Below are positions 2,042-4,975 of a DNA stretch of 55,536 bases, piece by piece (position 1 is the stretch's first letter; each line of letters opens with the position of its first letter). Position numbers and translations under genes: made by a program. Source of the stretch: Gammaproteobacteria bacterium (GTDB taxonomy: Bacteria; Pseudomonadota; Gammaproteobacteria; Burkholderiales; SHXO01); NCBI GenBank assembly GCA_041488355.1, contig JBGPPC010000002.1, positions 1-55,536 on the forward strand, read 5' to 3'. The notes under the pieces are model-generated. The model was given only the letters and a program-made list of their open reading frames with translations, searched no databases and had not been told where the DNA came from.

Positions 2042-2730
2042 ACAGCGTGCCCCCCTCTATCGCGTCGGGCGCGGTCTTGTTCGACCTCGATGGCACACTC
2101 GCCGATACCGCCCCCGACTTGGCCTATGTCTTGAACCTTCAGCTGCGCGCCCACGGCCGCCCGGAGCTGCCGGTTGGCGCGTTGCGCCCGTATGTTTCGC
2201 ATGGCGCGCGCGGCATGCTGCGCGCCGGCTTCGGGCTGGAGGCGGGCGACGCAGCCTATCTCGCCTTGCGTGACGAGTTCCTGGACTTGTATGAGCGCAA
2301 TCTGTTTCGAGAGACGAAACTGTTTCCCGGCATGGCCGAACTGTTGACCAGCCTCGAGCAAAGAGCCATTGCCTGGGGCATCGTCACCAACAAGCTCGAG
2401 CGCTTCACTTTGCCTCTGATCGCGGCGCTCGGCCTGGCTGGGCGAGCCGGGTGCGTAGTCGGCGGAGACACGACCGCGCGCGCCAAACCCTTTCCTGATC
2501 CGCTGCTCGAGGCGAGCCGCCGGCTCGGCGTCGAGCCGGGACAATGCACGTATGTCGGCGACGACGAGCGCGATGTCCAAGCCAGTCACGCCGCGGGTAT
2601 GACCCCGGTCGTGGCTCTGTACGGCTACCTGGGGGACGGCAGGCCGCCGCAGGAATGGGGCGCAGACGCCTACATTGAGCATCCCCTCAAGCTCTTGAAA
2701 CTGCTAGAGACATCTCCATCTGTGGGATAA
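2038..2730 (+). CDS. HAD-superfamily phosphatase (phosphoglycolate phosphatase Gph / MurNAc-6P phosphatase MupP-like)
   Basis: HAD motif I LFDLDGTLADT and motif IV VGDDERDV. The start overlaps the ubiG stop. Confidence 0.8.
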   Translation: MNSVPPSIASGAVLFDLDGTLADTAPDLAYVLNLQLRAHGRPELPVGALRPYVSHGARGMLRAGFGLEAGDAAYLALRDEFLDLYERNLFRETKLFPGMAELLTSLEQRAIAWGIVTNKLERFTLPLIAALGLAGRAGCVVGGDTTARAKPFPDPLLEASRRLGVEPGQCTYVGDDERDVQASHAAGMTPVVALYGYLGDGRPPQEWGADAYIEHPLKLLKLLETSPSVG

Positions 2731-2894
2731 TTGTCCGGGTCGAGAGTCGATCGTCGAGTCGGTGCCATTGCTGTTTCTTAAACCGATTCCCTGACTCCTG
2801 ACATGGGGGCGACCTGGTTTCGACGTGGGTCGCGAAGCAGCGCAGCGCATGCCAAGGTCCAGTCACCTTGTAAATCAGCTGGAAATCTATAGTC

Positions 2895-2927
2895 GCCAAC
2901 GACGACAGCTACGCTCTAGCCGCCTAA
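2895..2927 (+). other. tmRNA tag reading frame encoding ANDDSYALAA followed by a stop
   Basis: AAATCTATAGTC precedes GCC AAC GAC GAC AGC TAC GCT CTA GCC GCC TAA. This parallels the E. coli AUAGUC-GCA resume context and the ...YALAA tag. Confidence 0.85.
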
Positions 2928-3161
2928 TACCGGCTAGACTCTGCTCCCGGTGTGCTCATGGGCCGGATCTGATCCCGCAAGGGTGATGAATGCAGAGTCA
3001 TTCGCATGAGATCGTGCCACGCAGGGTTACTTTGCTCGGCACTAAATCGCTAGGTAACTCGCCAATCATCAGCCCGCCGGCCGGCGGTTGAGCGGTTAAA
3101 TCAAATGGCCAGGCTAAGCATGTAGAGCTGACTGTAGAGGACTTGCGGACGCGGGTTCGAT

Positions 3162-3462
3162 CAGTTCGGGTCGCCTCTGCCCGTAAGGGCAGAGTGAACA
3201 CGGGGCTCACATCGGTGAAACCTGACGCCGCCGAAAGGCGGCATGGCAACGCCGAGGGGTAGGGAGAGGGCCAACCTCAGACCTGCCCTGTAGAGACTCA
3301 TAGACTGGCTGACACCGGGCAACCGGTGAGAGCGAGCACTAGGATTCGTCGATTGAGATGACGGATAACACGCCCCGCATCCTGGACCTGCCACGGTGTA
3401 TGGCCGTGACAAGACAGGATGAAGGCATAGTCCAGCCTGTCTCGAAAGAGACGGATATGCTG
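3162..3462 (+). mobile_element. Group I intron (IC3-like core) inserted in the tmRNA T-loop
   Basis: It follows a U and ends in G. Complementary segments occur in group I order. P1 is 3158-3161/3170-3173, with U:G at the splice site. P2 is 3175-3182/3187-3194 with a GUAA loop. P3 is 3201-3206/3372-3377 and P4 is 3212-3217/3250-3255. The P5 hairpin is 3227-3232/3237-3242 with a GAAA loop. P8 is 3378-3384/3415-3421. A J8/7-like AAGGCATAGTCC lies at 3422-3433. P9 is 3437-3443/3448-3454 with a GAAA loop. TCGGTGAAACCTGACGCC...ATGGCAACGCCGAG resembles the Azoarcus tRNA-Ile intron P4-P5 region as I recall it. Confidence 0.85.
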
Positions 3463-3487
3463 TCCCGCCGCCTCCACCAATGCCCCG

Positions 3488-3524
3488 ACGCCGAGCGGAG
3501 TTTCCGCTCGGCGTTTTCTTTTTC
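3488..3524 (+). terminator. Rho-independent terminator of ssrA
   Basis: Perfect 11-bp stem ACGCCGAGCGG/CCGCTCGGCGT with loop AGTTT, followed by TTTTCTTTTTC. It begins 9 nt after the CCA end. Confidence 0.8.
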
Positions 3525-3533
3525 AGGCGACCT

Positions 3534-4022
3534 ATGGACTACTATCGCGCCGTTAGACAACTTACCGCAGCAGATGCAGCGTACATCGCAGGCCTCGTGG
3601 ATGGAGAAGGCACCGTTACACTCACCACGATGCACCGCGGTGACAACCGGCCGTTGGTGGTAAGCATCTCCAACACCGAGCGTGGGCTGTTGGAGTTCGC
3701 TCAAGCGGCCCTGGGCGCGGGGCAGATCACCGGCAAGCGAACCTACAACGTTAAGCACACCCCCAGTTTCGCCTTCCGCGTCACCAGCCGCCAAGCCGTC
3801 GAACTCTTGCGTCAGGTCGCTCCCTATCTGCGATCCTACGAGGCCGTGCGTTCCTGCGCCCCACCAGCACCCAAACGCCGAGCGGAGTCCCCCCCGGCGT
3901 TCTGTTTTCTTCCTCTCGGAGGTCGGCGTCCAGAGGATCAGGCTTGGCTCATGCGGAACCAAACAAGCCCCACCCGCTCGAAGTTAGAGCAGCGCTCCAG
4001 CGCCTGTGCGGAGTTTTTGTAA
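3534..4022 (+). CDS. LAGLIDADG-family homing endonuclease, probably C-terminally truncated or decaying
   Basis: Starting at the ATG at 3534, the product reads MDYYRAVRQLTAADAAYIAGLVDGEGTVTL... and carries the LAGLIDADG motif. The following beta-beta-alpha-beta-beta-alpha pattern parallels I-CreI up to APYLRSYE. From codon 107 (nt 3852) the frame runs into the duplicated tmRNA 3' fragment and becomes low-complexity. Confidence 0.75.
   Translation: MDYYRAVRQLTAADAAYIAGLVDGEGTVTLTTMHRGDNRPLVVSISNTERGLLEFAQAALGAGQITGKRTYNVKHTPSFAFRVTSRQAVELLRQVAPYLRSYEAVRSCAPPAPKRRAESPPAFCFLPLGGRRPEDQAWLMRNQTSPTRSKLEQRSSACAEFL
3852..3913 (+). repeat. Decayed second copy of tmRNA exon 2 plus its terminator (displaced 3' end, attR-like)
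   Basis: TCCTGCGCCCCACCAGCACCCAAACGCCGAGCGGAGTCCCCCCCGGCGTTCTGTTTTCTTCC aligns by eye with 3463-3524 (TCCCGCCGCCTCCACCAATGCCCCGACGCCGAGCGGAGTTTCCGCTCGGCGTTTTCTTTTTC) at roughly three quarters identity. The acceptor strand is 2 nt short and the terminator stem is broken. Confidence 0.75.
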
Positions 4023-4143
4023 CGCCCGGAGCAGGGACATTCACGGTTACAGGCGTAACAAACGCGGCGACCAATGGAATCCTGTCGTAAGGCCCGAGCA
4101 CTACTCTGCGTTATAACGACGTGTTGGGAGTTGGAGAACGAAC

Positions 4144-4752
4144 ATGAACATAGCATCCGACCGGCCCAGACCCTGGCATCTGACGATGGCTTTGGCTGCA
4201 ATCAGCGCTTTTATCCTGGTCCACCCAGCCGCAAGTCGGGCCGATGACGCCGGCGTTTACGCCGGGCGCTCCCTGCCCTCGGGCCTACCGGCCACCGCGC
4301 AGAAGGATCAGGGGCAGCTCGCGCTCGAACCGGGCAGTGCAGCACTGGGCGGAGATGCGACGCGCCTGGAGGGACAGCGCATTTTCGCTGGTTACCGATT
4401 GGCACCTGGGTTTGCGTTGGAGGGGGCCCAGATCCGAAGCGGCGCTTCCAACTTCGGGACGGGCAACGAGACGATCGTGGTGGCCGGAGTCGGCTCGGTG
4501 CCGCTGAGCGATTCTGTCAGCCTACTGAGCAAGTTAGGGGTGAGCTATCAGACGTCGGCGTTCGCTGGGGGCGGTGCGTCCCTATCGGAGGTCACGAGCG
4601 GCGCGCCGGTTTACGGGCTCGGAGTGTCCGTGCAAGTCCGCGACAACGTCGAAGTGCGTGCGCAGACTGAGCATCTCGGGCGGCCTGCCAGCGCCGTGCA
4701 AGGGCCTGCAGCGTCTGATTCGGTGTTGCTAGGCGCCAATGTCCGCTTCTGA
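4144..4752 (+). CDS. Small outer-membrane beta-barrel protein (OmpA-like/OmpW-like beta-barrel domain)
   Basis: Signal-like N-terminus ...MALAAISAFILVHPAASRA, alternating Gly/aromatic strands, and a C-terminal ...LLGANVRF ending in Phe. The start may be the internal Met near 4186. Confidence 0.55.
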   Translation: MNIASDRPRPWHLTMALAAISAFILVHPAASRADDAGVYAGRSLPSGLPATAQKDQGQLALEPGSAALGGDATRLEGQRIFAGYRLAPGFALEGAQIRSGASNFGTGNETIVVAGVGSVPLSDSVSLLSKLGVSYQTSAFAGGGASLSEVTSGAPVYGLGVSVQVRDNVEVRAQTEHLGRPASAVQGPAASDSVLLGANVRF

Positions 4753-4975
4753 CGGACGTGTGCGGCATCCGTAGTCTCTTGGCAGGAATTGTGGCGTCGT
4801 TAGCACGGCACGCGTTGTCGGCTCCAGAAGCCTGTCGCATCCGGCGGACCGCAGCCCAATCACTGTAGCCGCGCGCTGCCGGTTCGGCGCGAGCGCGCCC
4901 TTTCGCAGTCGCTAATCGATCAATGCCTTGAAGCGGGGCGCCGATATCGGCGCCCCCCAGGGCGAGCCATCGCCC

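Follow-up and report, generated by a model that had tools for sequence, protein, structure and literature searches.

Why should a homing-endonuclease gene (HEG) stand outside the intron with which it is presumably partnered, behind the last exon and the terminator of the host gene, and be followed by a second copy of both? The question is raised by the ssrA gene, which encodes transfer-messenger RNA (tmRNA), in a 55,536-nt stretch of DNA from a gammaproteobacterium (GenBank assembly GCA_041488355.1, contig JBGPPC010000002.1); this whole stretch is called the window below. Here a putative group I intron splits the T-loop of the tmRNA gene, and an open reading frame (ORF) of the LAGLIDADG type follows downstream. 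We estimate a probability of about 0.7 that these features belong to the 3' portion of a composite homing element in ssrA, with collaborative homing as its mechanism. The evidence comes from the window, from its close relatives and from related loci in other genomes; loci and proteins are cited by our L and P numbers.

A truncated LAGLIDADG endonuclease gene

The ORF extends from 3534 to 4022 (162 codons), and its ATG lies 54 nt past the CCA end of the tmRNA. A preliminary description of this DNA, made by reading the sequence, had assigned it to the LAGLIDADG endonucleases, and the profile search bore this out: the ORF matched Pfam PF14528 (LAGLIDADG_3) over residues 14-78 with 28.3 bits against a cut-off of 22.5 (E 2.1e-6), PF00961 also matched weakly, and the motif YIAGLVDGEGT is present. 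Residues D23, G24, E25 and G26 are invariant across 66 homologues. The NCBIfam search of the endonuclease returned no family. There are 549 homologues of the ORF, which among the matches listed are mostly 140-165 aa long and cover ~60-67% of the query. Phages hold distant homologues of the HEG only (≤36% identity), and plasmids none.

The homology is confined to the first ~106 residues, as had been described, and the sequences diverge after R106. In the alignment, the family continues past ...LRSYKAxRA with the tail ALALxxYxxLTPRNGKYxxExRxARxxFE, which is absent from the window, and at the DNA level the homology to the HEG family stops at 3851, the last base of codon 106. Codons 1-106 retain 89-93% identity to the relatives P0002 and P0003.

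Because the sequence search of the PDB gave only weak I-MsoI matches, the fold was assigned via structure prediction and Foldseek. The AF2 model of the full-length relative P0002 (pLDDT 88.8) matched I-CvuI, I-CreI and I-MsoI, which are homodimeric enzymes of introns, over ~145-150 residues, with TM scores of 0.64-0.72 and E ~1e-7. The remnant in the window retains the LAGLIDADG helix, both beta hairpins and helices 2 and 3, while the helices at 102-117 and 126-141 of the P0002 model fall past the breakpoint; the complete I-CreI core with its C-terminal helices is thus found in the model and not in the window ORF. As the family sequence is lost after residue 106, the window encodes a remnant in which the C-terminal part of the fold is missing. 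For I-CreI, a C-terminal loop is essential for DNA binding and cleavage, according to the title of PDB entry 2o7m. Codon 106 of the HEG is fused to the distal copy of the tmRNA 3' end, and the ORF therefore reads through non-coding DNA to a fortuitous stop at 4022. One match to this tail (L001, 42% in tblastn) was a chance similarity in the non-family region, and the search was redone from the alignment. The endonuclease copy in the window is most likely inactive, and would have entered the decay that follows fixation in a homing cycle.

A second copy of the tmRNA 3' end

The second copy of exon 2 and terminator that had been proposed lies well above chance. The segment 3463-3524 aligns with 3852-3913 at a local score of 44, compared with a maximum of 28 among 2,758 other 80-nt window segments on both strands (z = 11.7 against shuffles), and the two copies are ~76% identical over ~60 nt. 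The distal acceptor strand TCCTGCGCCCCACCA, with a single substitution and two deletions of 1 nt each, has 15 nt against the 17 nt of the proximal TCCCGCCGCCTCCACCA, and the distal terminator keeps a T-rich tail behind a broken stem (CGCCGAGCGG…CCGGCG; z -1.1), so that the shortened acceptor and the damaged stem of the preliminary description both stand. The proximal terminator hairpin (3487-3515) has 13 bp, -26.9 kcal/mol and z -4.9. When the intron was removed in silico, the pairing script gave 5/5 pairs in the T stem, 7/7 in the acceptor stem and 3/3 for the CCA, or 15/15 in all. From these pairings the tmRNA can in principle be matured from the proximal exon 2, and the distal copy appears to be a dead remnant.

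Two further observations concern the distal copy. The change from CCCGC to CCTGC in the 3' half of the distal T-stem is seen in the window (3852-3857), L007 (1510-1513), L061 (2907-2912) and the unrelated L090 (2942-2947); it could reflect clade ancestry, chance in the case of L090, or selection against a cleavable distal site. In addition, the deletion by which the HEG was shortened has its right breakpoint (3851/3852) within 1 nt of the equivalent of the intron site in the distal copy (compare L061, …aaTCGAT|TCCTGCC), an unexplained coincidence. Self-cleavage of the distal copy by the enzyme at T-loop position 6/7 was considered as the cause of the deletion and judged unlikely, because in L007 the 5' half of the distal T-arm has already decayed while the HEG is intact.

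Empty, full and decayed states in close relatives

The locus L101, whose exon 1 is 95% identical to that of the window, represents the empty site, with a standard intron-less tmRNA gene, terminator and flank. From its 3' end through the terminator and the flank up to the porin gene, L101 is collinear with the distal copies in L007, L061 and the window, which identifies the distal copy as the resident 3' end, now displaced. The flank landmarks CGGAACCAAAC, GTTACAGnCGTAAC, GGAATCCTG and GAGAACnnACATGAA are common to the window, L101, L061, L007 and L225. The occupied state is seen in the syntenic loci L007, L002 and L003-L006, from metagenomes and metagenome-assembled genomes (MAGs), in which exon 1, intron, exon 2 and terminator are as in the window and the HEG is full-length, at 157-162 aa; in the gene tables of L002-L007 the HEG is the sole gene between the HAD-hydrolase and porin genes. 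The empty site of L101 and the full states of L007, L002 and L003 support the earlier suggestion that intron, replacement 3' exon, terminator and HEG arrived as a cassette that displaced the native gene end.

The closest full-length relative is L007, with a HEG 89% identical to that of the window and a decayed tmRNA 3' end with terminator ~115 nt past the HEG stop. The distal copies of L007 and L225 share derived changes with the window copy (TCCT…GCGCC-CCACC), and the copy of L225 is better preserved than that of L007. Judged from these alignments, the window differs from the L007 state by a deletion of ~285 bp, which begins at HEG codon 107 and ends where the distal copy of exon 2 has its first base. 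The HEG of other clade members is damaged elsewhere: it is fused at codon ~98 to the tail of another small ORF in L225 (P0003), cut at ~codon 80, with a larger deletion, in L227 (P0016), cut at ~codon 80 in L061, and damaged at its N-terminus in L016. These lesions and that of the window are independent, and HEG decay is recurrent in the clade, which agrees with the preliminary reading of the endonuclease as decaying. As a separate observation, L002 (5640-6000) contains an extra small ORF, ending …EYIRAATRLEDAIDAVRGSG, between the HEG and the distal region, and in L225 (3290-3420) a deletion joined HEG codon ~98 to the tail of such an L002-type ORF, giving the chimeric P0003.

The lesions bear on whether the truncation could be an assembly or consensus artefact of a genome that in truth has a full-length HEG. 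The exact protein is found on one contig only, that of the window itself. The identity between the two copies is nevertheless too low over too short a distance for assembly collapse, the junction is clean and in frame, and in several relatives the gene has been truncated in ways of their own; an artefact is hardly credible on this evidence.

Presence and absence do not follow the flanks. Identity to the window in the HAD-hydrolase and outer-membrane protein genes is 82.5% and 77.7% for L101, 81.0% and 72.6% for L003, and 79.8% and 71.8% for L061. The empty L101 is closer in its flanks than the occupied L003 and L061, and the distribution of the element is therefore patchy. The window HEG is 85-87% identical to those of L003 and L061, above the identity of their flanking genes (72-81%).

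Occurrence of the layout across genomes

An alignment-based search for the HEG, with one genome per species, gave 80 loci from Gamma- and Betaproteobacteria, Nitrospirota and others; the cultured carriers include Thiocapsa marina, Thioalkalivibrio, Methylophaga sulfidovorans and Parahaliea mediterranea. In at least 61 of the 80 loci the HEG is preceded, on its own strand, by an intron-form tmRNA gene whose end lies 17-185 nt (median 63) away, and the introns of these genes are 251-453 nt long. Three further loci have a same-strand tmRNA in the matching position by Rfam, and eight contigs are too short for the tmRNA context to be judged. The layout had been called unusual at first; for this HEG family, a position outside the intron and behind a terminator is the usual arrangement.

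The remaining contexts are instructive. An uninterrupted tmRNA gene was found in one assessable HEG locus only, L090 (2026-2960), where an intron-less standard tmRNA is followed 63 nt downstream by an intact 144-aa HEG and by a distal copy of the sequence TCCTGCCGCCCCACCA. This is an endonuclease-only state, and its T stem has the compensatory variant GCGAG/CTCGC in place of GCGGG/CCCGC, which may confer immunity on the site. A member of the HEG family lies within the homologous tmRNA intron of L089 (2476-3208, a Candidatus Fraserbacteria MAG), directly past the 5' splice site and ahead of the conserved GGTCGCC block, probably in the P1 loop. In L036 (2501-3634) and L053 (2501-3372) the tmRNA gene and the HEG lie on opposite strands and converge, and the orientation of the HEG relative to ssrA is therefore not fixed. 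We also observed one homologue (P0019 in L008, 1-8477) with no tmRNA within 4 kb upstream; a terminator-like spacer still precedes it, and its neighbours are McrBC, reverse transcriptase and Cap4-type nuclease genes, a defence-island context.

A sample independent of the HEG was obtained by scanning for the junction CYG|TCCCGCCGCCTCCACCA, which gave, among the matches listed, 70 intron-form tmRNA genes with at least 700 nt of downstream sequence. A full HEG follows 28 of these 70 listed genes, a partial or interrupted one 12, and a displaced one 2, while 28 have none; this spread matches a cycle of invasion, decay and loss. Two kinds of locus stand apart. In L031 (673-2475) a group II intron (RF02001, RF01998, RF00029) lies between the tmRNA gene with its group I intron and the HEG, and a perfect distal copy of the tmRNA 3' end follows the HEG. 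Some bacterial group II introns insert after terminators, and L031 fits this behaviour. In L124 (3735-4125, minus strand) and L117, an intron-form tmRNA gene with its proximal exon 2 is followed by a 74-nt terminator spacer and an uninterrupted distal copy of T-arm and acceptor with no HEG, which represents either clean HEG loss or a HEG-less form of the cassette.

The co-divergence of the parts was loose. Over 50 loci the identities of HEG, intron and exon 1 were poorly correlated (Spearman 0.16, for HEG against intron, and 0.36); L035 and L045 have introns 94% identical with exons 1 at 70%, and L024 resembles the window clade (L002, L003, L006, L007) at 90-91% in exon 1 with 55-56% in the HEG. 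On these comparisons the parts of the element appear to be mobile, though not always jointly. Such looseness is what one would expect if the HEG were an independent selfish gene that homes to the ssrA flank or terminator, or to the distal T-arm copy, and resides beside an unrelated, fixed intron. The 28 of 70 listed intron-form genes without a HEG, the HEG of L090 without an intron and the opposite strands in L036 and L053 point the same way. Set against them are the single uninterrupted tmRNA among the assessable loci, with its compensated T stem, and the family member encoded within the homologous intron of L089; the structural relatives of the enzyme, moreover, are intron-encoded endonucleases that cut their own insertion site. 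We consider an independent HEG unlikely.

Terminators and distal copies

The origin of the duplicated gene end can be approached through the terminators. The proximal terminators of L018, L033, L041, L056 and L090 resemble one another (acggccacc…ggtggccgtcttctttt), and several Burkholderiales-type loci combine alike proximal terminators with different distal flanks, as one would expect of an exon 2 and a terminator that are carried along with the HEG. Within the window clade both copies have the same terminator type, so that the donor was a relative or the duplication was local. In the local case, the 3' end of ssrA and its terminator were duplicated in tandem and the HEG landed between the copies, with no pre-assembled cassette. 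This would account for the shared terminator type of the copies in the window, L061, L018 and L025, which is also like the native terminator of L101. It would not account for the proximal terminators of L033, L041, L044, L054, L056, L074 and L090, which are unlike the distal flank, for the likeness of proximal terminators between loci noted above, for the recurrence of the architecture in many diverse genomes, or for HEG identities that exceed those of the flanking genes between occupied genomes. A local duplication is, in our view, quite improbable.

Distal copies were counted only at ≤2 errors. At this threshold, exact or near-exact copies of exon 2 lie shortly past the HEG stop in 12 HEG loci, and 9 of 68 loci among the listed matches of the HEG-independent sample have one, against ~0.15 expected; fuzzy matching at 4 errors was uninformative, with 33 loci against 23.8 in shuffles. 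Short-word BLAST with the distal copy of the window missed those of the relatives, which were recovered by sequence reading and fuzzy matching. The copies are usually preceded by an uninterrupted T-loop and 5-12 nt of T arm (for example cGCGGGTTCGAT|TCCCGCC in L033 and L090), and what was duplicated is therefore the final ~17-29 nt of a tmRNA gene without intron. The idea that the duplication begins exactly at the 3' splice site of the intron describes the window as it now stands and fails more generally, as relatives' distal copies often include the T-loop and up to 12 nt of T-stem; the window duplicate looks bounded by the splice site only because the right breakpoint of the deletion falls there.

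A distal copy made of T-loop, up to 12 nt from the 5' half of the T-stem and the whole 3' strand of the acceptor resembles an att duplication, and the preliminary description had offered, as its alternative, the remnant of a genomic island. In that case an integrase-borne island would have entered the T-loop of ssrA with a replacement 3' end, leaving the resident end as the far att site, and would later have been deleted down to the HEG. The tmRNA gene is a frequent island site (PMC11915505), and the direct repeat of the gene 3' end expected at both borders is found here, a feature equally expected of the cassette. The content of the loci speaks otherwise. The interval between tmRNA and porin gene in the window (3480-4143) has no integrase gene and consists of the HEG remnant and non-coding DNA, and those loci that were read throughout have the HEG alone between their two copies. 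So compact a content is met again in many different genomes: the HEG begins 17-185 nt past the CCA, and a distal copy, where present, follows the HEG, ~10-110 nt past its stop in the loci with matched copies. Moreover, the association is specifically with intron-form tmRNA, and the same HEG family occurs inside the homologous intron of L089. The deleted island is not favoured, and we regard it as very improbable.

Proposed mechanism and evidence against it

In the composite element that we propose, the intact order, as in L007, would be exon 1, the intron, a cassette-borne 17-nt exon 2 with its own terminator, and the HEG after ~54 nt; on the far side of the HEG would follow the resident 3' end of the tmRNA gene, displaced together with its terminator, and then the native flank. 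The intact enzyme would cleave the intron-less tmRNA gene in the T-arm, with …GGACGCGGGTTCGATTCCCGCCGCCTCC… as the presumed target. The intron would interrupt this cleavage site and so shield the carrier, and repair of the break would transfer both intron and HEG to the empty allele, with the tmRNA sequence past the HEG as a right-hand homology arm where genome flanks differ. The insert would thus be bracketed by tmRNA sequence, as with an ordinary intron-encoded HEG, while the RNA would be matured from the proximal exon. Expression of the HEG might come from read-through of the terminator or, in some lineages, from a regulated promoter of its own. Collaborative homing is the likely mechanism, on the combined pattern of states and copies.

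A possible regulatory element was seen in one sub-lineage. The LexA/SOS-like box CTGT-N8-ACAG ends 2-3 nt before the HEG start in L008 (3943-4003), L018 and L033, and so in 3 of the 87 unique regions upstream of a HEG, where 0.0008 per 95 nt is the background; it is absent at the HEG start of the window. It hints at HEG expression inducible by DNA damage in that sub-lineage.

Several points weigh against this reading. L033, and also L081, the upstream part of which is cut off, keep an intact HEG beside a near-complete, uninterrupted distal T-arm; if the T-loop is the centre of the site, the enzyme would be expected to cut this copy in its own genome. About 40% of the sampled intron-form tmRNA genes, among the matches listed, have no HEG; such introns, and the loose co-divergence of HEG and intron, show that the parts are separable, and the partnership may be looser than a single cassette implies. 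The HEG stands behind a strong terminator, and no sigma-70-like promoter was found in 2650-4250. The distal copy extends as far as 12 nt upstream of the intron site, more than simple repair after a staggered cut of 4 nt in the loop would produce. The same terminator type on both copies in the window clade also fits duplication in situ, and the score of the intron lies under the Rfam gathering threshold. Cleavage, splicing, expression and the target site are all inferred. A symmetric 22-bp homodimer site in the palindromic T arm was also considered; its half-site symmetry, counted by hand, was 4-6/11, and it was not used as evidence.

The tmRNA gene, the intron and the features of the region

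The ssrA gene is flanked by the genes for a HAD-family hydrolase (2038-2730) and an outer-membrane beta-barrel protein, the porin gene above (4144-4752). Exon 1 contains the 5' acceptor strand, the tag ORF ANDDSYALAA, the pseudoknots, the 5' half of the T-stem and the first six T-loop bases (…GCGGG TTCGAT), and terminates …GCGGGTTCGAT at 3161; exon 2 is identical in nearly all related loci. The Rfam model RF00023 matched the tmRNA with 160 bits (E 2e-64) over 2805-3182, and this standard model puts the 3' end in the wrong place. ARAGORN reported zero tmRNA genes over the whole window, and misses this one (2805-3479) because the T-loop intron splits it. The tag-coding sequence matches Competibacteraceae-like genomes.

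The intron has U at -1 and a terminal G at 3462, with the junctions TTCGAT|CAG…GCTG|TCCCGCCGCCTCCACCA. It matched RF00028 with 30.5 bits (E 4e-5), under the gathering score of 50; a dedicated tmRNA_intron model is absent from Rfam (PMC11915505). Among the introns at this site, 66 further unique sequences are homologous to that of the window and share the conserved blocks GGGTCGCC, GTAGAGACTCATAG and GATGAAGGnATAGTCC, and the P7/J8-7-like block GATGAAGGCATAGTCC is conserved over all 67. The ORF list and Pfam gave no HEG-related ORF inside the window intron. The L003-L006 lineage has a hairpin insertion of ~40 nt (…CCCCCTCCCTCTTTGAGAGGGCTAGGG…) in a peripheral part of the intron (L003 ~4785-4825; intron alignment columns 624-662).

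Table 1. Features of the ssrA region in the window.
Feature	Position	Strand	Evidence
tmRNA exon 1	2805..3161	+	Boundary from sequence reading and pairing script
Putative group I intron without ORF, 301 nt, T-loop position 7	3162..3462	+	RF00028 and homology at the same site
Proximal tmRNA exon 2 TCCCGCCGCCTCCACCA (17 nt), predicted functional	3463..3479	+	Pairing script; identical in almost every related locus
Intact intrinsic terminator, proximal copy	3487..3525	+	Terminator scan; 13-bp hairpin and T run
LAGLIDADG HEG remnant, codons 1-106	3534..3851	+	PF14528; identity to P0002/P0003; P0002 model
Out-of-family ORF tail, codons 107-162 and stop	3852..4022	+	No family homologue; DNA collinear with L101 intergenic region
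Distal, displaced exon-2 copy TCCTGCGCCCCACCA	3852..3866	+	Alignments; collinear with native exon 2 of L101
Decayed ssrA terminator copy	3876..3913	+	Alignment with native terminator of L101
Native ssrA downstream flank, up to the beta-barrel gene at 4144	3914..4143	+	Landmarks common to relatives

Significance and comparison with known systems

A published survey catalogued 883 tmRNA introns and found a HEG inside the intron in 36 of them (4.1%), after P9 or in P7.1, compared with 54% of archaeal rRNA group I introns (PMC11915505). So low a share leaves open how tmRNA introns spread. The text of that paper mentions neither 'downstream' nor 'free-standing' endonuclease genes, and in the searchable literature on tmRNA introns and homing endonucleases we found no description of intron-form tmRNA with a downstream free-standing HEG. 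Compared with the 4.1% of intron-internal genes, 40 of the 70 intron-form genes in our sample of listed matches have a HEG or its remnant behind them. A HEG directly behind 40-57% of the sampled intron-form genes with exon 2 TCCCGCCGCCTCCACCA, among the matches listed, is a testable answer for that subset.

The wider proposal, to which we give even odds, is that many bacterial tmRNA introns are half of an undescribed and widespread composite element, with a HEG outside the intron, a portable 3' exon and terminator and a built-in right homology arm, which could thereby invade ssrA in genomes whose flanks are unrelated. It would explain at least part of the paradox of the 4.1%, and would be the first case of collaborative homing by a LAGLIDADG enzyme in a chromosomal RNA gene. 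If true, collaborative homing would extend from the protein genes of phages to bacterial chromosomes and an essential RNA gene. Comparison of ssrA loci among relatives, which the preliminary description had also recommended, gave an empty site (L101), intron with intact enzyme (L007, L002 and L003), enzyme in the intron, enzyme only (L090), decayed enzyme, and intron only (28 loci among the matches listed); all stages of a homing cycle are thereby seen, and the loci are a good natural system for the joining and parting of intron and endonuclease. The family comprises several hundred small I-CreI-type enzymes, presumably with one highly conserved target. The window, taken by itself, holds what is most probably a dead copy of the composite element. 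In practice, intron-form tmRNA genes are missed by ARAGORN, and displaced 3' copies can be misread as att sites of islands.

Compared with the known tmRNA introns at position 7, the window intron has the same insertion point (TTCGAT|T), U at -1 and terminal G, splits the tRNA-like domain in the same manner, and is ORF-less at ~300 nt against a mean of 293 nt (PMC11915505). It differs in that the HEG lies outside the intron, past exon 2 and its terminator, with a second copy of the gene end. The HEG of L089, which is within the intron, is unlike both of the positions given in that survey.

With I-CreI, I-MsoI and I-CvuI the enzyme shares a single LAGLIDADG motif, a length of ~150-160 aa and, in the P0002 model, a fold that agrees up to and including the C-terminal helices. 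The identity is only 16-22%, and the window copy stops matching at residue 106. The genes for the three known enzymes lie within introns of the 23S rRNA in algal chloroplasts.

Integrase-borne islands in tmRNA and tRNA genes are alike in that the 3' end brought by the element is kept functional and a displaced partial copy remains on the far side. Here, in contrast, there is no integrase, and the cargo is one HEG of a ~0.6-kb insert tied to an intron in the same loop. Some endonuclease genes bring a substitute terminus for their host gene, for example the LAGLIDADG genes in fungal mitochondrial rps3. There too, the 3' end carried by the insert keeps the host gene functional and the original end is left downstream; those insertions are organelle protein fusions, whereas the present case involves an RNA gene, an intron at the junction and an intervening terminator.

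In its proposed logic the element parallels collaborative homing, in which the enzyme cuts the intron-less allele, the intron protects its carrier, and both are co-converted. The described cases are F-CphI with the psbA intron of cyanophage S-PM2, and T4 mobE with the td/I-TevIII intron (PMC3984707, PMC6083498, PMC2790892). The window shows the corresponding layout of an ORF-less intron in the target gene with a HEG adjacent to it, outside the intron. The known cases concern phage genomes, protein-coding genes and enzymes other than LAGLIDADG, whereas the present loci would involve bacterial chromosomes, an RNA gene and putative cleavage by an I-CreI-type LAGLIDADG enzyme, and they add a replacement 3' exon and terminator, often with a displaced copy of the gene end. 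tmRNA introns and collaborative homing are each known; the layout with a LAGLIDADG gene downstream is new as a variant.

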